Source: an uncultured Chloroflexia bacterium
GTDB taxonomy: Bacteria > Chloroflexota > Limnocylindria > Limnocylindrales > CSP1-4
DNA: 64,000 nt
Direction: 5' to 3'
Assembly: GCA_963712745.1 (NCBI GenBank)
Contig: CAVQJC010000006.1
Coordinates: forward strand, 224,001-288,000
Part shown: piece by piece, positions 54,755 through 63,904 of the stretch
Position numbering within the stretch: position 1 is the stretch's first letter
How the letters are laid out: every line of letters starts with the position of its first letter
Notes under the pieces: model-generated
Database searches by the model: none
What the model was told of the DNA's origin: nothing
What the model saw: only the letters and a program-made list of their open reading frames with translations
Made by a program: the position numbers and the translations under genes

Positions 54755-54800
54755 TTATCGACGTTTGTCCACGGGTTATCCACAAGAATCGTGGAGAGTT
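54755..54800. promoter_or_regulatory. DnaA box cluster upstream of dnaB
   Basis: Perfect TTATCCACA 54776 plus degenerate TTATCGACG 54755 and TTGTCCACG 54765. Confidence 0.6.
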
Positions 54801-54907
54801 CGGCCCCGGTTCGTGGAGATGCGCCTTGCGGAGCGCCTTCGCGAACCGCGAACATCGGTGCAACAGTCCCACTCGCCCCTGACTTCCTGATGTCCCGGAG
54901 ACTCCCT

Positions 54908-56269
54908 GTGTCCATCGATCGCTTGCCGCCGCAGTCCATCGAAGCCGAGCAATCGGTCCTCGGCGCGCTCATGATCGACAAGGACGCCGTTATCGAAGTG
55001 GCGGAGATCCTCAAGCCTGACGACTTCTACAGAGGCCACCACGGCACCGTCTACGCTGCGGTTCTCGAGCTCTATGAGCGTCGTGAGCCCATCGACATCA
55101 TCACCGTCAGCGAAGTGCTGGAGCGGCAGGGCAAACTCGACGACGTCGGTGGCTCGGCCTACCTGACCAGCCTCATGAATCTCACGCCCACGGCCGTCAA
55201 CGTCACCCACTACGCGCGCATCGTCGAACGCAAGGGCGTGCTCCGGAACCTCATCAGTGCGGCTGGCCGTATCGCCGGCTACGGCTATGAGGAAGAGGGC
55301 GATATCAGTGCGGTCATCGACCGGGCGGAGTCGGAGCTCTTCGCCGTCAGCGAGAAGCGCGTGCAATCGGGATTCTCCTCGCTCGACTCACTCCTCCACG
55401 GAGCCTGGGATCGACTCGACTACCTCCACCAGCACAAGGGCGAGATCAGCGGCATCCGAACCGGCTTCAAGAGACTCGATGCGCTCACGACCGGCCTCCA
55501 GAAGTCCGACCTGGTGCTCGTGGCGGCCCGGCCATCGATCGGCAAGACCAGCCTCGCGCTCAACTTCGCCGAGCACGCCTCGGTCAACGAGGGCAAGGTG
55601 GTGGGCATCTTCAGCCTCGAGATGAGCAAGGAGCAGCTGGTGCTGCGCCTGCTCTCGTCCGTCTCCAACGTCGACTCCAACCTCTTGCGCACGGGCTGGC
55701 TGGAGGAGATCCACTTCGCACGCCTGGCGCCGGCCATGAGCAAGCTCGCGACTGCGCCGATCTTCATCGACGACACACCCAACATCAGCGCCATGGAACT
55801 CCGTACCAAGGCCCGCCGACTTCAGGCCGAGTCCGGGTTGGACCTTATCTTGGTGGACTACCTGCAGCTGATGCAGTCGAGCGTGACCTCGCGGGACGCC
55901 AACCGCGTGCAGGAGGTCAGCGACATCTCGCGAAGCCTCAAGGCGCTGGCGCGCGAGCTGCAGGTGCCCGTGGTGGCGCTCTCGCAGTTGTCTCGGCAGA
56001 CGGAGAACCGCGGTGAGAAGGGGGAACCGCGACTATCTGACCTGCGAGAGTCCGGTGCCCTCGAGCAGGACGCCGACCTGGTCATGTTCCTGTGGCGCGA
56101 GAAGGAACGCAATCCGGACGATGACGATGCGGACGGCGAGGTCATCAACCTGAAGTTGGCCAAGCACCGCAACGGCCCAACCGGGGACATGCAGCTCTAC
56201 TTCAAGAAGCGACAGACCCGTTTCGAGAACGTGGAGGAGGACCACTACGCGGAGAGCGCGTACGCCTAG
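54908..56269 (+). CDS. dnaB: Replicative DNA helicase
   Basis: PPQSIEAEQSVLG, AARPSIGKT, FSLEMS, DYLQL, SDLRESGALEQDAD, KHRNGPTG. Confidence 0.97.
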   Translation: MSIDRLPPQSIEAEQSVLGALMIDKDAVIEVAEILKPDDFYRGHHGTVYAAVLELYERREPIDIITVSEVLERQGKLDDVGGSAYLTSLMNLTPTAVNVTHYARIVERKGVLRNLISAAGRIAGYGYEEEGDISAVIDRAESELFAVSEKRVQSGFSSLDSLLHGAWDRLDYLHQHKGEISGIRTGFKRLDALTTGLQKSDLVLVAARPSIGKTSLALNFAEHASVNEGKVVGIFSLEMSKEQLVLRLLSSVSNVDSNLLRTGWLEEIHFARLAPAMSKLATAPIFIDDTPNISAMELRTKARRLQAESGLDLILVDYLQLMQSSVTSRDANRVQEVSDISRSLKALARELQVPVVALSQLSRQTENRGEKGEPRLSDLRESGALEQDADLVMFLWREKERNPDDDDADGEVINLKLAKHRNGPTGDMQLYFKKRQTRFENVEEDHYAESAYA

Positions 56270-56316: not shown

Positions 56317-56523
56317 ATGGGCGTCATCATCATCCGTGAGATGGTCGGCAGCAGCCCTGAGTCGTGGAGCGTTGCAGCCGCAGAGGCCGTCGCTCGTGCG
56401 TCTTTGACCGTGCGCAATATCCGCCACGTGGAAGTTGTCCGCCATACGGCTCGTGTCGAGGACGGGCGGATCGCCGAGTACGAAGCAGAACTCAAGATCT
56501 TCTTCGAGTACGAGGGTACCTAA
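56317..56523 (+). CDS. Dodecin-family protein
   Basis: EMVGSSPESW..A...AV.RAS.TVRNI...EV...DGRIAEY. Confidence 0.85.
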   Translation: MGVIIIREMVGSSPESWSVAAAEAVARASLTVRNIRHVEVVRHTARVEDGRIAEYEAELKIFFEYEGT

Positions 56524-56529
56524 GGCCAC

Positions 56530-56538
56530 TTATCCACA
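56530..56538 (+). promoter_or_regulatory. Perfect DnaA box
   Basis: TTATCCACA in a short intergenic gap. Confidence 0.5.
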
Positions 56539-56554
56539 GCGTGGTAAGCGCGAG

Positions 56555-59500
56555 ATGAGCGCGTCTCACGATGATGCGCCTATGCCCGAGTCGGTGAGCT
56601 CCGAGCGCACTTCCGACGTCCAGCCGCAAGCGGCTGGAGCGTCATACATCTCTGTCCAGGCCGGGGACGTTGACCCCCACCCGTCGGGCCTGGCCATCAT
56701 CGCCAGCAAGATCAGTCCAGCCACGCCGGCACGATCCGTGCTCACGCGCCGGCGATTGTCCGAGTGGTTCGGCCAGCAAGTGCGGGCGCGGCTGATCCTG
56801 GTCTCAGCTGAAGCTGGCTACGGCAAGACGACGTTGCTCAGTGAGTTCGCGCTGGAAACGCGCGACAGGTGCGTGTGGTATCGGATCGAAACGTCGGACG
56901 GCGACTGGATCACGTTCCTCAGCTACATGGTCGCGACCTTGCGCGGGATCTCGCCGGACTTCGGCCGCTCGACGGAAGCACTTCTGCGCAACGTGGCGGC
57001 CATGGGCTCATCGAGGGAGATCGTGCTCGGCCAGTTCCTCGCGGACCTGAGTGCGCTCGATATCAGCCGGGTGGCCGTGATCCTCGACGACTACCACCTG
57101 GTGGAGGCCTCGTCCGACGTGCGCATGATCATGGGACGCATGCTCGAACGGGCGCCTGACGGGATGTACTTCATCCTTGCCGGTCGTGGAAGGCCCAACC
57201 TGGGACTCGGCCGGCTCCTGGCGCAGGGGCGCGTATCTGAGCTCACCATCGACGATCTGCGCTTCACGCGCGCAGAGATCGTAGAGCTGTTCTCCACCGT
57301 CTACGGGCAGCCACTCGATGACGAAGCCTGCCAAGTCATCGCCACTCGGACTGAGGGGTGGGCCGCCAGCCTGCAACTGGTCTCGGCCTCCATCGCCGTC
57401 AGCCAGCCTGAAGAGGTATCGGCCTTCATCGATGCCTTGAGCGGTGCTACGGGGCCGATCTACGAGTTCCTCGCTGAGGAGGTGCTCACGCGCTTGTCAA
57501 CACGGACCCAGCTGATCCTCACGCATGCGTCACTCGTCGATCACGTCCGTCCGGAGTTCGTCGTGGCGGCGCTCTCGGTGACATCCTCTGAGCCGGATCG
57601 CGCGGCTGTCGAGCGTGCCCTCGACGAGGTGGAGACGTTGGGACTGCTCGGTCATCGAGGCAATGCCGCGGGAGGGCGCCGACTCCATCCCCTCTTCCAG
57701 GAGTTCCTGCAGGTCCACCTGCAACGTGACTCGTCTCCGGGTCAGGTCAGGGCCATGCACCACGCCATCGCAACGGAAGCCATCCATGTCGATTGGCTCC
57801 TGGCTGCGCGCCACTTCGCTCTGGCCGAAGAACCAGACGTGGCCATGGATGTCCTCGGGTCCGCGGCGAGTGAAGCGCTGGGCACGGGTGCCTGGGGCGC
57901 GGCGGTCGAGATCGTGGAGTTGATGCCGGAAACGTCCCCACCGACAGCCGTCAAGGTGATCCAGGCACGCGCCCTGATTAGCGACGGCTTTCCCGACAAC
58001 GCACTCGAGGTGCTCGAGGGCATCGACAGGAGCGGGCTCTCGTCGGAGGAACGCGGACTCGTCGGGCTCACCGCCGCGGCGATCCACCACATGAACGGAG
58101 ACGCAGGCCTCCTCACCAGCGAGGTCGAGGCTGTCGCCGACGATACCCAGGTTCCGGCGCCGCTCCGGGACGTCGCCGTCTCCTGGCGCAGGCTGCTGCA
58201 CGCGATCTCGGCGGCAGCATCTCCGATGCCGTGCAATCACTCCGTCACCTCGCGGTTGACCAGCGTCGGGACGGACTCCACTACTTCGCGGTGTCACGCT
58301 TCACAACTCCGCGTACGCGGAGCTGGCTCGCGGTAACTACCAACACGCACGAAACCTGGCGTCAGAGGCGGTTGAGCACCTGGAGCGCACTGAGGACGCA
58401 TCGGGCATCATCGCCTCGACGTGCTCCAGTCGCAGCGACCGCCACCGCGGAGCTGGAGATACTCGAGAGAGGGACTTCGACTTGGCCATCTCGACTGCGA
58501 TGCGGCCGGACGCTACGGCGGACGCAATCGCGGACGCGGCATACATGCATGCTGTGTGCGGACGTCGGATCGAAGGCGAGATCGCTCCTCGCCAGGCTTG
58601 AGCGAGGTGACGCTCGCTGGTCCCGCGAACTGGCGACAGAGCGCCAGCGTCTCTACGCGACCATCGCGCTGCCCTGGCGAGGCGAAGGCAGGCTCAGGAC
58701 GCCGACAGGGCACGTCGACGCTCGATAGCCTGGAGTCGCAGATTATCGACGCACAATCCCGGAGGCAGTTCTCGCTGCCACTCTCGCGGTAATGAGGCGC
58801 GCTCCCGAGGCGCAGGACGCCACTTGCACAGGCGGCCCGTGGAGGCTTGCGGCAGGACAGAACGCCTGGCGATGGCTGGCACGCGCACGAATACTCGAGG
58901 CCGCAGCTCAGCGCGACGGCAGCGGGCCCTCGCACTCTGGATTCGGAGAGTGAAGAGGGTCGGCGCTCGCTATTCTGGAGCTGGCGGACGTGATTGCAGC
59001 CGGCGATAGGCACCCTGGTGCTCTCTTCCCGACGCGCTCGAGCGCTCCATCCTTCGCGAGCCATCTCGGTGGGTACCAGCGCTTCGTCGCCAGAGTCCAG
59101 ATATGGAACAGGACGAGGACGCGAGTGCTGCGGCGTCGCTCTCGCCCGCTTCGGCTCGCCGACGACGCCCAAGTTCTTCGTGACTTTGAACGCTCGGCCG
59201 ATGGCAAGTCACGGCGTCGGGATGGCGACACAGCTGATCCGCCGGGTTAGTCCGACTGTCCGTGTCCACGACCTCGGTCTCACAAGTTACGAAATCGGCG
59301 ACCGTATCGTGACTCTTACAGACACTCGGCGAAAGTCGGCCGCTCTATTGCTCTACTTGGTGACACGGCCAGGTTTGGCGGCAACACGCGAGCAGGTGAT
59401 GGACAGCCTGTGGCCAGACCAGAACCCGAAGTCAGCCACGAACAGCCTCCACCAGACCGTCTTCTTCCTTCGCCGAGATCTCGAGCCTTGGTATGAGGAC

Positions 59501-59997
59501 GGCTCCACTGCCGACTATGTTCACATGGAGACCGATTTGGTGTTCCTCGACAAGGACTTGTTCCAGGTCGACAGCGTGGCGTTCTCGCGACAGGCGTCAG
59601 ACATCTTGTCGACCGGCACCGCAATGGCGCGCGAGGCCGGAGATGCTCGCGCTCTACCAGGGCAGCTTCGCGCCCGAGTTCGAGTACGAGGAGTGGGCCG
59701 AGGAGTGGAGGACGACGCTCCACGGTACGTTTCTTCACCTAGCCCACGCGACCTCGATTGCGCTGGTGGACGTCAGGCGCTACACCGAGATGCATCGACG
59801 TACTGTCGCCGATTGCAGCGCTCGATCCCACTGCGTTCGAACTCCGGGCACGACTGGTTGCGTGTCTCGCCAGAGTCGGCGCGGTTGACGCAGCACAGGC
59901 GCACTATCGAAGCATGGCATCGGCTCACGAACGGGACTTGGGTCTGCCCGCTCGTTCATACGAGGAAATCGTCAAGGGACTATCGGACTCACGCTGA
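56555..59997 (+). CDS. MalT-like ATPase/TPR regulator with C-terminal SARP wHTH and BTAD domains (several frameshifts after ~58200)
   Basis: AEAGYGKTT, VILDDYH, TEGWAA; LLLYLVTR...REQVMDSLWP...SLHQTVFFLRR; LALYQGSF...EEWAEEWR; ERDLGLP in successive frames. Confidence 0.8.
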
Positions 59998-60207
59998 CTA
60001 GTCGTACGTACTAGTACTTATAGGGCCCCGAGCCACCCCGTACCTAACCTTGCCCATGCAACAGTCCCCCGAGGCTGAAGCAACGACCACGGAGCGGGAC
60101 TAGGTCCGCATCGAAGGGCTCGAGAGAGGGGACCTTCGAAGTCAAGCCCGAGAAGCGCTCCCCATCAAGCCGGACGCGGTTTCCGCGCCAGGCACGAGGG
60201 GAAACCG

Positions 60208-60339
60208 ATGAATCCCAACGGCAACAGTCAAGCCCTGGTAGTCGATATGCCTCGCAATCTCTTGTCGAGGCTCACGCTGCTTTCGACTCTTCTCGCGACA
60301 CTCGTGGTCGCGGGCAGCGCGGGCATCAGACCCATCTGA
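60208..60339 (+). CDS. Unannotated 43-aa signal-peptide-like ORF (alternative start 60247, 30 aa)
   Basis: GAGGGG RBS; MNPNGNSQALVVDMPRNLLSRLTLLSTLLATLVVAGSAGIRPI*; below the ORF-track cutoff. Confidence 0.6.
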   Translation: MNPNGNSQALVVDMPRNLLSRLTLLSTLLATLVVAGSAGIRPI

Positions 60340-60351
60340 AGGGACTAGCGC

Positions 60352-60380
60352 ACTCCCAGTACCAAGGTTGGATGGGGAGT
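60352..60380 (+). terminator. Imperfect hairpin after the small ORF
   Basis: ACTCCC...CCAA/TTGG...GGGAGT. Confidence 0.35.
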
Positions 60381-60438
60381 TGACAGCTATCAATCGAGAT
60401 ACTGAGCGGCCTCCTTGCTTCCACGGTCAGGAGTCGCG

Positions 60439-61823
60439 TTGCACTTGTCAAGACACCTTCGGATTCTTCTGGTAGTCGTTCCTCTGGCGGCTGTCACGCT
60501 GCTCGCGTGCGAGTTGGTCGTATGGCCCATCGATGAGTTTGATGGGCCTCTTGTGGTTGGTCGCCTCGCCTTCTGGGTCGCGGTCACTCTCCTAGCGTCT
60601 GCCTCACCTGTGCACGTGCCGCGCGGCTCGATGGTGAGCGTCGCCGCTGCCCCAATCATCGCGGCGGGCATGCTGGGCGGTCCTACAGCAGCCGCCGTGG
60701 TGGGCGTCTTTGGCACTCTCGAGGTTCGAGAGCTCCGGGGCCAAGTCCCTTGGTATGGGGTGGTGTACAACCACTCGATCGCCGTGGTCGCCGCCGTGGC
60801 ATCCGGGCGGTGTACGAAACCAGTCGTGCGGCGGGGGAGCATCGCCAGCACGAGCGGGCTGGTGGGGCGGCGTGGCGGGCGTGCATCGTCTTCGTGCTCG
60901 TCAATCACCGTCGCTATCCTCGCTTGCGGTCGCTCTCCGAGAGATGCGACCATATCGCGGCCGTGCTGACGGTCCGATTTCCGGTCGTTCGGTCTGGGCC
61001 TCGTGCGGCCTAACCCCCATCGCCTGGCTGATGGCGCTGGCGTACCTCTTCGTCGGCCCCCTTGTCGTGTTCGCGGTCGCGCATGCCGCTGTACACGACT
61101 CGTGCCGCCTTCAAGGCCGTGGTCGATGTCCGTGACATGTTCACGCAGACCGTGAAGGCGCTCGCGTCCGCTATCGACGCGCGGGATCCGAGCACCAAGA
61201 AGCACTCGGAGCACGTCTCCGGCATCGCCGTCGAGATCGGCCGGGCCATGCATCTCAGCGAGCCCGAACTCGAACAGCTCGAGTGGGCCGGTCTGTTGCA
61301 CGATATCGGGAAGATTGGCATCCGTGACTCGGTCCTGCTCAAGCCCGAGAAGCTCACCCGCGAAGAGCGGATCCTTATGAACGAACACCCGGTCAAGGGT
61401 GAAGAGATCCTCAGGGATGTCGATCAGCTGGCGGCGGAACGCCCGCTCATCCGGCACCACCACGAGTGGTACAACGGCTCGGGCTACCCGGACCGCCTCA
61501 TCGGCGAGGAGATCCCACTGCTGGCACGGGTGCTCCACGTTGCCGACGCGTTCGAGGCCATGACGGCGTCGCGCCCGTACCGCCCGGTCCCGCTGACCAC
61601 CGAGGAAGCGCTCGAGGAACTCCAGCGCTACTCGGGCATCCAGTTCGATCCTGTCGTGGTCGATGCCTTCTCGCGCACGAAGACCGCGACGCAGGCCTCA
61701 CAGGATGATGACGAGCCGGGCGAGCCTGAACAGCAGCCGATAACGGTGCCCACGCTGGGCCAGGTCGCCGCTGCCAGGACCAAGGGCACACTGCCCGCGA
61801 GCTCAGCCCCCGCCGAGCCCTAG
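60439..61823 (+). CDS. Membrane-sensor HD-GYP protein (frameshifts in the TM region)
   Basis: AGGAG RBS and TTG start; multi-TM N-terminus; AIDARDPSTKKHS, LLHDIGK, HHHEWYNGSGYP, VADAFEAMT. Confidence 0.85.
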
Positions 61824-61912
61824 TCGGAGAGTCCCGAGCATATGGCGGGCTCAGCCCCGCAGACTTCCGAGCGCGAGCGACCCTGCCTGATCGCGTCCGG
61901 ACCTGAAGTCTG

Positions 61913-63904
61913 ATGCTGCTGATCGCGATCGCCCTGGGTGTCGTCGCCGGTCTCATGGCAGGTGGCCGGATCTCGAATCTCCTGTCGGCGCAGCTTCGCT
62001 ATGGCTGGCTTATCGTGGCTGGCCTGCTTCTGCGCGTGATCACGCAGTGGCTCATCGACCAGGGCGTCGACGTGGTCGATCAGTTGCGTCTGCCCCTGTT
62101 CACGCTCTCGTTCGGCTTGCTGGTGGTCGCCCTTTGGCTGAACCGCTCGCAGCCCGGACTGCTGCTCGCGATGGTGGGAGTGGCCGCCAACGGGATCGCC
62201 ATCCTCCTCAACGCCGGCTACATGCCCGTGTATCTGCCGGCGGTGGAGATGGCCGGTCTTACCTTGGCCGACCTGTCGCCCACCTTCAACGTGCTGCTAC
62301 CCGAGGAACTGGGACTCGATTTCCTGCTCGCTGGTGGGCCATTGGGCGACGTCCTGCCCATCGCTATCCCGCTGATCGCAAACGTCATCAGCATCGGCGA
62401 TGTCCTCCTCGCCGCTGGAGTGGGCTGGTATCTGTTCTCGGCCATCGCCCGCGGCTCGGCCGACCCCGAGTCGGGCGTGGTCTCGATGTGGAACGCCAAG
62501 CCTGCCGCTGTGGACCACCCAGTCTTCACGGCGGATCAGGCCGGCCTGGACCGCCCAGTCATCGGTGGCTCGGCCATGGGACCAGGCCTGGGCACGCCAT
62601 CGGCTTCCGAAGCGGTGGATGCAGTCACCGCGGAACCGCGGACGGTCGCCCCCGGCCTCGGCCAGCGGGTCCGGGAACACCCCTACATTCGACTAGCCCG
62701 CGATGCGCGCTTCTCAGCTTTCTGGCTGGCGGGCACGATCAGCCTGTTCGGCGACCGACTCCACCAGATCGCCCTCGGCGTGATGGTTCTCGGCGTCACG
62801 GGCTCGGCCATGCAGACCGGTTTCGTGTTCCTGGCGGCGACCCTGCCCAACCTCTTCCTCGGGCCGATCGCAGGGACGTTCGTGGACCGCTGGGATCAGA
62901 AGCACGTGCTGATCGTCAGCGACCTCATGCGCGCAGGACTCGTGCTGACGCTGCCCTTCGTGGCCGATATCAACATCTGGCTCGTCTACCCGGTCGTCTT
63001 CGTGGTCACGACCATCAGCCTGTTCTTCCGCCCGGCCAAGGCGGCCATCATCCCCCGCATCGTGCGGCGGGAGGACTTGACCCCGGCCAACGGCGCCATC
63101 TGGACGGGTGAGACGATGGCCGACATCGCGGGCTATCCACTGGCCGGCGTGTTCGTGGCATTTCTTGGCACCAATCTGGCCCTGGCCTTCTGGGTCAATT
63201 CGTTGACGTACGTCGTCAGCGCGGTCCTGCTCGCGGGGCTCGTGATCCCGCCGGCGGTCAGGGAGGTGGGCCCCCGTGTCAGCAGCGCGATGGATGCCTT
63301 CGTCGAGGAGTTGCGCGAGGGCTGGGAGTTCCTGCGCCACGACGCAGCCCTGTTCCAGAACACGCTCGTGAGCGTCGTCGCGCAGCTGACGGTCGGAGCC
63401 ACCCTGGCCCTGATGGTGGTCTACGCCCAGCGCTCGCTCGAGGGCGAGACGATCCCGTATCCCGAGAGCTACGCCGTCATCGAAGCGGCGATCGGCCTTG
63501 GCAACCTCGTCGGCGGGTTCGTCGTCGGTGCCATCGGGGCACGACTGCGCAAGGGCTGGTTGGTCATCACCGGCTTCGCGGTGATGGGAGTGGCCACGAT
63601 CATCCTGGGGCTGACTTCCAACGAGCTCGTGGCTGTCGGTGCGGCGGTGGTCGTGGGCGTGTTCAACCTGGTCTATGTCATCCCCAGCCAGACGCTCTTC
63701 GCCGAGCGTACGCCCGAGGGCATGATGGGACGCGTCGTTGCCATCCGCTCCAGCATCGTCATGGGTGCACTCACCGGGGCCATGGCTATCAGCTCCGGAC
63801 TCGCCGACCATGTCGATGCGGGCATGATCATCGCGGCCACAGGTGTCCTCACGGTCATCGCCGCGGTCGTCGCCACCTGGCTGCCGGCTGTACGTGACGC
63901 GTAG
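61913..63904 (+). CDS. DUF5317-like membrane domain fused to an MFS transporter (DHA3/macrolide-efflux-like)
   Basis: N-terminal ANGIAILLNAGYMPV...PLGDVL...VISIGDVLL; C-terminal FWLAGTISLFGD, AGTFVDRWD, MGRV, 12 TM helices. Confidence 0.85.
   Translation: MLLIAIALGVVAGLMAGGRISNLLSAQLRYGWLIVAGLLLRVITQWLIDQGVDVVDQLRLPLFTLSFGLLVVALWLNRSQPGLLLAMVGVAANGIAILLNAGYMPVYLPAVEMAGLTLADLSPTFNVLLPEELGLDFLLAGGPLGDVLPIAIPLIANVISIGDVLLAAGVGWYLFSAIARGSADPESGVVSMWNAKPAAVDHPVFTADQAGLDRPVIGGSAMGPGLGTPSASEAVDAVTAEPRTVAPGLGQRVREHPYIRLARDARFSAFWLAGTISLFGDRLHQIALGVMVLGVTGSAMQTGFVFLAATLPNLFLGPIAGTFVDRWDQKHVLIVSDLMRAGLVLTLPFVADINIWLVYPVVFVVTTISLFFRPAKAAIIPRIVRREDLTPANGAIWTGETMADIAGYPLAGVFVAFLGTNLALAFWVNSLTYVVSAVLLAGLVIPPAVREVGPRVSSAMDAFVEELREGWEFLRHDAALFQNTLVSVVAQLTVGATLALMVVYAQRSLEGETIPYPESYAVIEAAIGLGNLVGGFVVGAIGARLRKGWLVITGFAVMGVATIILGLTSNELVAVGAAVVVGVFNLVYVIPSQTLFAERTPEGMMGRVVAIRSSIVMGALTGAMAISSGLADHVDAGMIIAATGVLTVIAAVVATWLPAVRDA

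Follow-up and report, generated by a model that had tools for sequence, protein, structure and literature searches.

A micropeptide, DUF5317 and HD-GYP unit in soil Chloroflexota and its possible place in c-di-GMP control

What is the role of a very small open reading frame (ORF) that directly precedes the gene for a membrane-bound HD-GYP phosphodiesterase? The question is raised by a locus near one end of a 64,000-nucleotide stretch of DNA from an uncultured Chloroflexia bacterium (contig CAVQJC010000006.1, positions 224,001 to 288,000), the whole of which is called the window here. On its + strand, the list of ORFs and Pfam searches gave a gene for a regulator with STAND, TPR, winged-helix and BTAD domains, the small ORF, a membrane HD-GYP gene, and a gene fusing DUF5317 to a transporter of the major facilitator superfamily (MFS). 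The original prediction had described this set as an Agr-like signalling cassette, in which DUF5317 cuts a peptide precursor, the MFS half exports the product and the HD-GYP protein senses it.

Sequence comparison suggested a different picture. The locus appears to be an undescribed membrane module of soil Chloroflexota, composed of a mini-peptide, a DUF5317 protein and an enzyme expected to destroy cyclic diguanosine monophosphate (c-di-GMP). We assign a probability of roughly 45% to the reading that riboswitch-gated membrane micropeptides work with DUF5317 and with the sensor domain of the enzyme in a c-di-GMP feedback loop.

Two micropeptide genes and their conservation

The small ORF was present as predicted between the regulator and HD-GYP genes: it starts with ATG, occupies 60208-60339 on the + strand and encodes 43 amino acids (aa) with the sequence given originally. 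The homologous locus was taken from 20 relatives in the genus. Fifteen had the order dnaB, dodecin gene, regulator, HD-GYP and fusion; one ended at a contig edge, and four were a paralogous fusion elsewhere. The intergenic alignment revealed an extra base at about 60226 in the window that was absent from all 15 aligned relatives. The relatives have a 10-codon ORF (ORF1) with its stop, 5 nucleotides (nt), and then a 30-codon ORF (ORF2). Because the extra base is present only in the window, the 43 codons there represent the start of ORF1 joined to ORF2, so that the single small gene of the original prediction resolved into two.

ORF1 of the genus relatives reads M-x-P-N-x-x-[VI]-K-P-W-stop. Its window equivalent, 60208-60241, is shifted by the extra base, and the conserved V-K-P-W-TAG (60227-60241) is out of frame with the ATG for this reason. 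A few relatives (loci L022, L023 and L025) had frame errors of their own in ORF2. One locus showed a peculiar form of ORF1: in L065 (G207), at about 1760-1858 in the oriented sequence, it was expanded by tandem repeats into one open frame, with a unit ending in T-K-G-W present four times.

Both ORFs showed the signature of coding sequence. For ORF2, the entropy at codon positions 1, 2 and 3 was 1.39, 0.99 and 1.75 (51 loci, anchored at the stop). Counting back from the stop, residues -9 to -6 (A, G, G/S, A) were near-invariant while their third positions approached saturation (third-position entropy 1.8-1.9). For ORF1 (45 loci), the codon for Pro at -8 had entropies of 0.69, 0.35 and 1.62, and K at -3 and W at -1 were nearly fixed. 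UAG or UAA stops ended 62 of 66 ORF1 copies and 57 of 72 ORF2 copies, compared with 910 of 2280 long frames of the genome (40%). The tail pattern of ORF2 occurred once in the genome, and no Pfam or NCBIfam family matched ORF2. We conclude from these patterns that the small ORF is real and conserved, and that it looks translated.

The conservation extended well beyond the genus. Among 40 family loci from 40 genomes of about 30 genera, the regulator was found on the 5' side in all 40, the fusion on the 3' side in 38, and ORF2 in 39, with the consensus M-K-x-R-L-x-R-L, a hydrophobic span, and A-L-A-G-G-A-S-L-[KR]-G-F. An ORF1-type peptide ending in K-x-[WFY] was also present in 39 of these loci, in 31 of the 39 with exactly ten codons, starting with ATG or GTG. 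The HD-GYP protein itself was detected in 188 of 201 family genomes (three of them unpublished) at E<=1e-40. Its membrane domain was found in 56 of 60 genomes of family f1, 54 of 66 of f3, 49 of 66 of f4 and the single genome of f5, and in none of the seven genomes of the small-genome family f2 (tally including six unpublished genomes).

ORF2 was recovered in 19 of 20 loci of three further families (f3, f4 and f5). All 11 loci of f4 had the core of a riboswitch aptamer, ORF1, ORF2, HD-GYP and the fusion. ORF1 has 8-9 codons there and ends in K-G-W, and ORF2 ends mostly in F-K-G-W. The f4 regulator was of the TPR/winged-helix/BTAD type or was represented by fragments, with no regulator match at L123 and L129 by either search. 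In f3 and f5, ORF2 was present with its own ribosome-binding site in eight of nine loci, the ninth ending at a contig edge; it has about 25 codons and ends in G-G-G-A-G-x-x-G followed by an aromatic or aliphatic residue. No aptamer core, ORF1 or SARP-type regulator was found at the f3/f5 loci examined. The HD-GYP gene was followed by an MFS gene in all nine, and tblastn located DUF5317 in a separate frame before the MFS gene in three (L118, L126 and L127). The gene on the 5' side was a thymidylate kinase gene or a divergent LuxR-type gene.

A further 80 species-representative loci yielded 69 ORF2-like ORFs, 66 ORF1-like ORFs and 52 aptamer cores. Comparable small ORFs were found at most homologous loci in each survey (ORF2-like in 39 of 40, 19 of 20 and 69 of 80); their absence, which would have spoken against the original prediction, was not observed. 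The SARP-type regulator, ORF1 and the riboswitch co-occur in f1 and f4, while ORF2, HD-GYP and MFS are co-conserved with DUF5317 across four families of Chloroflexota of the Limnocylindria type. The predicted association of the small ORF with the membrane HD-GYP, DUF5317 and MFS proteins thus holds across these families. For annotation, the last survey means that at least 69 ORF2-like and at least 66 ORF1-like ORFs exist among 80 loci, and that genes of 10 and 30 codons were missed at many of them.

This record bears on two of the alternatives. A chance ORF or an assembly artefact with no biological meaning might be suspected from the error-rich stretch at 58.2-61.1 kb and from the 43-codon form, which is the product of one extra base. 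Such an origin is close to negligible in view of the conservation, the codon-position pattern and the recurrence at more than 100 homologous loci. ORF2 might also be a peptide resembling type I toxins or holins, gated by the leader, with ORF1 acting as a coupling ORF in the style of mok/hok; a short hydrophobic product, a tightly structured leader and a 5' coupling ORF would all suit this. We regard it as very improbable, since ORF2 is single-copy in the genome and its synteny is fixed, next to dnaB and the dodecin gene across the genus and with three partner genes across four families, unlike toxin loci, which are mobile and patchily distributed. No antisense RNA was seen, although no search was aimed at one.

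The copy in the window needs a separate comment. Its genome consists of 20 contigs with 84.6% completeness. Comparison with intact orthologues by tblastn placed frame changes in the regulator gene at about 58.1-58.2 kb, 59.2 kb, 59.63 kb and 59.78 kb (five frame segments), and in the HD-GYP gene at about 60.9-61.0 kb and 61.07 kb (three frame segments). Frame tracking by GC content at third codon positions agreed with this for both genes. The four genes are therefore co-directional and ordered as originally described, but two of them are frame-broken here. In seven genus relatives both are single ORFs (1135-1158 aa for the regulator, 457-476 aa for HD-GYP), and the remaining relatives had breaks at positions other than those of the window.

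Over 56400-58154 and 61604-62000, the window was matched exactly by short-read contigs taken from four public runs. In the broken stretch these contigs differed from it by 1-base indels at 58207, 58287, 59002-59113 (seven), 59789, 60956 and 61081; these contigs are about 150-410 nt long, of low depth and from other samples. A short-read record over ORF1 (60112-60262) came from a diverged relative, which differed by 5 substitutions and 6 gaps. No RNA record was listed over 56400-62000. Because the intact parts were identical and the broken stretch carried 1-base indels, the frame breaks are probably assembly errors; a real decay of the copy in this strain could also account for them. The indels cluster at 58200-61100 between identical flanks, and this stretch is unfit for gene models without polishing. 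The window copy illustrates how indels in long-read assemblies can disguise a unit of small genes.

The coordinates of the features are collected in Table 1. The unit is preceded by dnaB (54791-56269) and the dodecin gene (56317-56523). Just past the end of the window (L001:3567-4988) lies a gene for protein-L-isoaspartate O-methyltransferase, whose product has a long low-complexity N-terminal extension with a PT repeat; this gene is not obviously a member of the unit.

Table 1. Features of the unit in the window and of a second unit (L250) in the same genome
Feature	Coordinates	Strand	Remark
Regulator gene, STAND NTPase - TPR - winged helix (Trans_reg_C) - BTAD	56555..60001	+	frame-broken in this assembly
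Conserved block just 3' of the regulator stop	60008..60046	+	intergenic alignment
Structured RNA element of the window's subclade, where relatives have the c-di-GMP-II aptamer	60091..60163	+	alignment and single-sequence folds
Shine-Dalgarno GAGGGG (60197-60202) and ORF1 (ATG at 60208)	60197..60241	+	alignment
ORF2, 30 codons, signal-peptide-like, predicted single-pass micropeptide, ends AGSAGIRPI-stop	60247..60339	+	
Inter-ORF RNA between ORF2 and the HD-GYP gene	60348..60438	+	RNAalifold
Membrane HD-GYP phosphodiesterase gene, TTG start	60445..61823	+	frame-broken in this assembly
DUF5317-MFS fusion gene, intact, 663 aa	61913..63904	+	
28-residue mini-peptide, same design as ORF2	L250:3124-3210	-	
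Stand-alone DUF5317, 214 aa	L250:2400-3044	-	
GAF-GAF-GGDEF diguanylate cyclase, 657 aa	L250:421-2394	-	

The leader RNA and the spacer before the HD-GYP gene

The aptamer that accompanies ORF1 is the class-II c-di-GMP riboswitch, c-di-GMP-II (Rfam RF01786). It was found just 5' of ORF1 in all eight relative loci tested, six of them scoring 58.9-68.6 bits, above the gathering score of 53.5 bits, and two scoring 44-45 bits. Matches were present in 127 of 151 family genomes (two of the 151 unpublished), 87 above the cut-off, and the top-scoring ones lay a few hundred nt 5' of the HD-GYP gene where both coordinates were listed. Of 66 loci, 49 had a match to a pattern for the aptamer core no more than 330 nt from ORF1.

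The structure of the aptamer was supported by covariation in 41 relatives, the window not included. For P1, P2 and the pseudoknot, 95.7% of cells were paired, versus 88.1% in shuffles (reached in 0 of 500). The covariation score was 0.237 versus 0.096 (0 of 500), cells with double changes numbered 69 versus 19.3, and slid controls were 25-40% paired. The pseudoknot pairs never vary and are therefore uninformative in this test.

A competing terminator-like stem, CCGAC...GUCGG, was found with RNAalifold, followed in f1 by UUUU; seven sequences had compensatory changes in two of its pairs. Because the 3' strand of P1 also forms part of the 5' arm of the terminator stem, we infer that the riboswitch of the relatives is an ON switch, in which bound c-di-GMP would let transcription run on.

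The original prediction had named the SARP/BTAD regulator as the driver of transcription. The main recognisable control element proved to be the riboswitch, and the regulator was not found at the f3/f5 loci. A putative promoter may be seen in the conserved block 3' of the regulator gene, which comprises a perfect palindrome, GTACTAGTAC (60008-60017), then TTATAG (60018-60023) and, after a gap of 17 nt, TACCTA (60041-60046). In the alignment the block falls opposite the promoter of the family, TTGACC-N17/18-TATAGT; in L079, a promoter scan placed TTGACC-18-TATAGT (10/12) 5' of the aptamer. We also observed GTAC-containing repeats around the -35 position (60003-60046 in the window; ATAGGTA...CGTATTGAC in the family), and GTAC 3' of the ORF2 stop in many loci. 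The palindrome GTACTAGTAC and the GTAC repeats could be a candidate binding site of the SARP-type regulator.

The aptamer core was absent from the window and its closest relatives (L021-L028 and L031, and partly L030 and L040). An alignment and single-sequence folds of 10 members of this subclade gave a conserved hairpin instead, with an outer helix of GGAGCG (60091-60096) and CGCTCC (60156-60161) and an invariant core, GGGCTCGAGAGAGGGGACC (60116-60134), whose exact sequence has a single occurrence in the genome. Because L032 and L039, of the same genus as the window, retain the canonical aptamer core, the window-type leader looks derived.

A side observation concerns the same aptamer family. 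Outside the window, the genome has 25 matches to the c-di-GMP-II model at 43-49.5 bits, just under the gathering score; examples are, in G000, C10:172588-172673 (+), C5:98049-98135 (-), C5:101486-101572 (-), C5:82644-82727 (-), C15:65195-65281 (+) and C17:159898-159982 (+). The six matches that we inspected had their own consensus, with altered loop and pseudoknot letters, and lay directly 5' of a ribosome-binding site and ATG. The genes on their 3' side code for proteins with signal peptides, a paralogous pair resembling methyltransferases, and a protein of 148 aa. Several sister genomes have 10-15 c-di-GMP-II matches each. The sub-threshold set is possibly a lineage-specific riboswitch subclass.

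Downstream of ORF2, RNAalifold on seven subclade sequences predicted a helix between GCGCACTCC (60348-60356), which begins 9 nt after the stop of ORF2, and GGAGTCGCG (60430-60438), where the HD-GYP gene has its Shine-Dalgarno region. This suggests translational coupling of ORF2 and the HD-GYP gene in the window's subclade. A -10-like GATACT is present at 60398-60403 in the window. In 28 core-family loci, the spacer was 62-88 nt long, mostly 72-79 nt, with GTAC conserved beside the ORF2 stop and, some 40 nt ahead of the HD-GYP start, a TAGAGT resembling a -10 element. In f3 and f5, a hairpin with a folding energy of -20 to -39 kcal/mol lay 3' of ORF2 in all eight loci, followed in most by a T-rich tail and in three by only 1-3 T in the next 9 nt. 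A strict scan for terminators reported none in L117 or L079.

These features invite the explanation that ORF1 and ORF2 are leader peptides acting in cis, whose translation, or stalling at the K/R-G/P-aromatic-stop sequence, would remodel the mRNA and set HD-GYP translation, the peptides themselves having no task. Both ORFs lie in a long structured leader behind a riboswitch and end in one motif right before the stop, with the skew toward UAG and UAA described above. ORF1 is too small for most of the roles that proteins play, and at the loci examined it was seen only with the riboswitch; in the subclade, base pairing is predicted between the sequence after ORF2 and the Shine-Dalgarno region of HD-GYP. 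A stalling peptide, however, needs its last residues only, whereas the basic and hydrophobic design of ORF2 was maintained over its whole length in 67 of 67 peptides. In f3 and f5 it persists with its own Shine-Dalgarno sequence and hairpin, with neither riboswitch nor ORF1; the 28 core-family spacers yielded no consensus RNA structure; and a paralogous mini-peptide precedes DUF5317 at another locus. We therefore consider the explanation distinctly unlikely as a whole. A purely cis-acting role for ORF2 is unlikely, but acting in cis may be part of how ORF1 works and, in the window's subclade, ORF2. An attenuator of the ermC or secM type for the whole family was set aside as the main reading, given the 28 loci with no consensus structure and the solitary ORF2 of f3/f5.

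Peptide tails and membrane proteins

The design of ORF2 was examined in 67 peptides of 24-32 aa. All have K or R among the first nine residues, small residues at -8 and -6, and a hydrophobic or aromatic last residue; the uncharged span has a median of 19 residues. A basic residue stands at -3 in 54 and G or P at -2 in 60, and Cys is present in only two. The bare signal-peptide shape with a short tail that the original prediction saw in one sequence is common to all of them. The small residues at -8 and -6 would satisfy the (-3,-1) rule for cleavage ahead of a tail of five residues.

The tails of ORF1 and ORF2 are of one pentapeptide type, [ST]-hydrophobic-[KR]-[GPS]-aromatic, and the last five residues are the same in both ORFs in L074, L110, L070, L077 and L068. 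In L119, both have a rare Ser at -2, encoded by AGC in one and TCT in the other; L070 has a common Ser at -5, with the codons AGC and TCG. The different Ser codon families argue against gene conversion. Tail matches at -2 and -1 numbered 58, compared with 50.4 +/- 2.15 in shuffles within groups, a value reached by 23 of 20000. We take this as a modest but real signal that both tails may answer to one partner. Most ORF2 tails read IRPI or INPI in the window's subclade and LKGF or LRGF in the family. Because tail types follow families, covariation of the tail with the sensor domain is not separable from relatedness.

The proteins encoded around the peptides were analysed by domain searches and structural models. 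In the window, pieces of the regulator matched AAA_22, Trans_reg_C (7.5e-7, 29.6 bits) and BTAD (20.5 bits, below the cut-off of 22.1). An intact orthologue (L031:2660-6064) gave BTAD at 33.9 bits, Trans_reg_C at 24.3 bits, just below the cut-off of 26.2, AAA_22 and TPR. The regulator is of the SARP type, with a winged helix and BTAD. Its domain order, with the NTPase first and the DNA-binding part last, is presumably the reverse of that usual in large SARPs.

The HD-GYP protein consists of an N-terminal sensor domain of about 215 residues with seven helices, and a C-terminal HD_5 domain (PF13487; 61062-61823, E 1.9e-40, 138.8 bits against a cut-off of 27.2) with the motifs LLHDIGK and GSGYP. 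The sensor was modelled with a predicted local distance difference test score (pLDDT) of 90.3 (residues 1-240 of L031, alignment of 46 sequences), and two short helices stand side by side in the model, at 180-197 and 199-211. A search of the Protein Data Bank (PDB) by sequence with this domain found nothing. By structure, S-components of energy-coupling factor (ECF) transporters took ranks 1-14, with Z 10.3-16.5 over 151-190 residues at root-mean-square deviations (rmsd) of 3.1-4.2 A. The best match was 4m5c_A, of the NikM type (Z 16.5, rmsd 3.1 A, 190 residues of a 214-residue chain); RibU, FolT, PanT, BioY, ThiT and CbiM scored Z 12-13.5. After the S-components the scores dropped to Z 7.8 and 7.7, the first unrelated chain being at 7.7. 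By this one method, the modelled sensor domain has the fold of an ECF-transporter S-component, an assignment of fold and not of function.

In the window, the fusion protein matched DUF5317 (PF17248) with E 4e-24 at aa 27-174 (85.8 bits against a cut-off of 25), and all 49 aligned orthologues matched as well. In the gene, DUF5317 extends over about 61991-62434 and a DHA3-type MFS part over about 62723-63751. The DUF5317 model (pLDDT 92.9, 49 sequences) has five long helices and a small strand-rich insert. Eight invariant residues, N100, G102, M104, D146, P149, S160, G162 and D163, lie in the insert and at the start of the last helix. The MFS half matched MFS_1 (2.3e-29) and MFS_3 (8e-24) in Pfam. 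It fell below every curated cut-off compared, with 209.7 bits of 319.6 for TIGR00900, 110 of 675 for Mef(A) and 66 of 324 for EntS. It is nearest to DHA3-type exporters, and its transport role is predicted.

Nothing in the analysis marked DUF5317 as the peptidase that the original prediction took it to be. The model had no match to a solved fold (best Z 8.4, rmsd 5.3 A, 100 residues, generic helical), Foldseek returned 0 matches at E<=0.001, and chains of LspA, prepilin peptidase or the presenilin type were not among the best 50 structural matches. The best hit in the PDB by sequence was not significant (E 0.13, cytochrome c'), and the 49 orthologues gave no other Pfam link. Against Peptidase_A24 (PF01478, six proteins of the same genus) hhalign gave 0.16%, and thus no profile similarity to prepilin peptidase as a representative of the GxGD proteases; the S-x-G-D at 160-163 we take to be a resemblance to GxGD proteases at the motif level only. 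Against LspA (PF01252, an alignment from the same lineage) hhalign gave 7.25%, with a weak local match of 25 residues, G-G-x-x-x-N-L...R-L-R, in which the catalytic Asp column of LspA stood opposite a non-Asp column of DUF5317.

A secreted signal could still be made from ORF2 in the manner of Phr or SHP peptides. Signal peptidase I or DUF5317 would cut it after A-G-G/S-A; the tail, released with or without the MFS protein, would serve as an intercellular signal, received either by the HD-GYP sensor or, once taken up, by the TPR region of the regulator, and ORF1 would be a leaderless copy. The bare signal-peptide design with its small -8/-6 residues, a variable hydrophobic region beside a conserved cleavage-site-like motif and a moderately variable tail, and the co-varying tail type common to ORF1 all agree with such a signal. 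So do the co-conserved exporter-type MFS protein, the TPR-bearing regulator that adjoins the unit in f1 and f4, and the invariant D146 and D163 beside the last helix of DUF5317. Read-through attenuators follow precursor genes, and the f3/f5 hairpin with its mostly T-rich tail may be compared with them.

We nevertheless find a secreted signal doubtful, though it is a serious rival to the reading that we favour. DUF5317 yielded neither a peptidase signature nor a peptidase fold in the searches above, and no peptide importer or known receptor family was seen, none being specifically searched for. Between close relatives the tails vary far less than is typical of pherotypes. The peptide persists in f3/f5, where the regulator and ORF1 were not found, and the genome has a second unit, which leads to a cytoplasmic GAF-GGDEF enzyme and contains no exporter.

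This second unit (L250, G000:C20:61200-66600) lies on the minus strand (Table 1), and its mini-peptide was retained in 13 of 14 genus loci. It belongs to a broader pattern. DUF5317 was found in 64 of 201 genomes of the phylum. Thirty of its loci were inspected with 1.5-kb flanks, and an HD-GYP catalytic domain was nearby in 13 and MFS in 4. With a looser pattern, a signal-peptide-like small ORF stood beside DUF5317 in about 10 of the 30, some of which may be chance ORFs; the narrow ORF2 pattern gave 1 look-alike beside DUF5317 in 30 other phylum loci. Pairs of a mini-peptide and DUF5317 thus recur beyond the locus of the window. As a separate observation, the paralogous fusion in L033, L035, L036 and L037 (G020, G017, G018 and G019; 54-59% identity) lies directly 3' of a gene for an MMPL-type transporter and a gene whose product ends ...YWEGSQ...ELTGY.

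The recurring pair also leaves room for a bolder reading, which we hold to be unlikely: a two-peptide layer on c-di-GMP, with DUF5317 as a new membrane aspartyl enzyme and a pentapeptide read by the S-component-like pocket. High c-di-GMP would produce a leaderless decapeptide and a membrane-inserted precursor with one co-evolving C-terminal pentapeptide. DUF5317 would trim the precursor after A-G-G-A, and the pentapeptide, released or displayed, would be passed to the GGDEF cyclases at sister loci, so that the level of the messenger would be broadcast to neighbours or checked against them. If this were true, the pair of mini-peptide and DUF5317 would be a general cross-phylum input device for c-di-GMP enzymes.

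The proposed unit and known systems

The reading that we favour is simpler. ORF1 (about 10 codons) and ORF2 (about 30 codons) would be translated micropeptides that open a conserved c-di-GMP control unit, laid out as promoter, leader RNA, ORF1, ORF2, membrane HD-GYP phosphodiesterase, and DUF5317 or DUF5317-MFS. In relatives with the riboswitch, high c-di-GMP would induce the peptides together with the degrading enzyme and thereby give negative feedback. ORF2 would insert as a single-pass peptide with its N-end inside and its C-end outside, and the predicted topology would place the invariant A-G-G/S-A motif and the five-residue tail at the outer face of the membrane. There it might bind to, or be processed by, its neighbours: within the same cell it would be a partner, ligand or substrate of DUF5317 and the S-component-like sensor, and would set the phosphodiesterase activity. 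ORF1, which at the loci examined was found only where the riboswitch is, would be a riboswitch-linked companion with a C-terminal pentapeptide of the same type and no membrane anchor. In the window's subclade, where a conserved hairpin appears to have replaced the aptamer, translation of ORF2 would probably unmask the ribosome-binding site of HD-GYP.

Several observations weigh against this proposal. The window leader (59800-60700) had no Rfam match at E<=10, so that the feedback logic rests on relatives. Control by the riboswitch need not reach the enzyme: there is no consensus structure in the spacer between ORF2 and HD-GYP in the 28 core-family loci, and, given this and the conserved -10-like TAGAGT, the HD-GYP gene may have a promoter of its own. 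The f3/f5 hairpin agrees equally well with a subunit and with a precursor gene that is expressed separately and at a high level. The conservation of ORF2 lacks helical periodicity and rises toward the small-residue motif, and thus resembles a cleavage site more than a packing face. Part of the tail covariation may stem from kinship within the groups used for shuffling. Finally, the partners are not inseparable: two of the 40 family HD-GYP loci had no fusion within 2.5 kb, and four of the 20 genus-level DUF5317-MFS matches were the paralogue, which has neither HD-GYP nor ORF2 beside it.

For the sensor domains of most membrane-bound c-di-GMP enzymes, no input is known. The conserved peptide of 25-32 residues, together with the DUF5317 protein that travels with HD-GYP or GGDEF enzymes, is a candidate for such an input, and its placement under a c-di-GMP riboswitch would close a feedback loop through a micropeptide. 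The S-component fold of the modelled sensor domain points to ligand binding inside the membrane, and DUF5317 gains a biological context from the unit. No description of this module was found in the literature searched, by titles or the starts of abstracts, and a full-text search retrieved no paper naming DUF5317.

Among known c-di-GMP-II operons, class-II riboswitches of Clostridioides difficile include examples of ON switches. The relatives of the window carry a bona fide class-II aptamer and a competing terminator-like stem. They differ in that the aptamer is followed by two micropeptide genes ahead of a c-di-GMP phosphodiesterase gene, and the window's subclade has a hairpin outside Rfam. 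Leader peptides behind riboswitches or within attenuators, such as mgtL with its Mg2+ riboswitch, ermCL, tnaC and secM, offer a parallel for a conserved ORF of very few codons that separates a riboswitch from the genes under its control, and for the predicted masking, in the subclade, of the downstream Shine-Dalgarno region by sequence beside the ORF2 stop. Unlike them, ORF2 is conserved over its whole length as a membrane peptide and persists where the riboswitch is lacking.

Bare signal-peptide precursors with 5-8 active C-terminal residues are known from Phr/Rap and SHP/Rgg (the RRNPP family) of Firmicutes and from pheromone precursors of enterococci such as PrgQ. Likeness to RRNPP systems lies in the very short, precursor-like peptides and in the TPR-containing regulator that adjoins in f1 and f4. 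However, the regulator here is of the STAND/SARP type, the tails are poorly diversified, and the unit persists with no regulator in f3/f5.

The MASE9-HD-GYP proteins, T. maritima TM1467 and S. venezuelae HdgA, have an uncharacterised polytopic domain that is thought to bind a ligand within the membrane, with eight predicted segments, two of them short, and conserved aromatic and Asn/Ser positions (10.1101/2021.11.05.467447). The protein described here likewise has HD-GYP after a polytopic membrane domain, with a short adjacent helix pair in the model, a likeness judged by description only, as neither Pfam nor NCBIfam, as searched, holds a MASE9 model. In the parts of that account on which we draw, a riboswitch, a small protein, DUF5317 or an S-component fold is not mentioned; the fold of our model fits the published guess of ligand binding inside the membrane (10.1101/2021.11.05.467447).

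The Agr-like layout of the original prediction was not borne out. As in Agr, a small precursor-like peptide does share one cassette with polytopic membrane proteins and a candidate membrane receptor. The peptides, though, lack a conserved Cys from which a thiolactone could form (2 of 67 contain Cys), and the cassette proteins, which matched HD_5, DUF5317, MFS and regulator domains only, include no AgrB-type domain and no histidine kinase or response regulator.

A closer comparison may be drawn with the small membrane proteins that tune larger partners, as MgrB and SafA do with PhoQ, and as do KdpF, AcrZ, and CbiN with the S-component CbiM. The peptides are unrelated to these in sequence, the output here is a phosphodiesterase, DUF5317 and a second, anchor-less peptide are added, and the partnership is predicted. 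The likeness is one of arrangement: a single-pass peptide of fewer than 50 residues forms one unit with a presumed membrane partner, and would, as proposed here, be induced by the signal that the partner controls. The CbiM/NikM-type S-components, which work with a small membrane partner, have the same fold as the modelled sensor domain of the HD-GYP enzyme.

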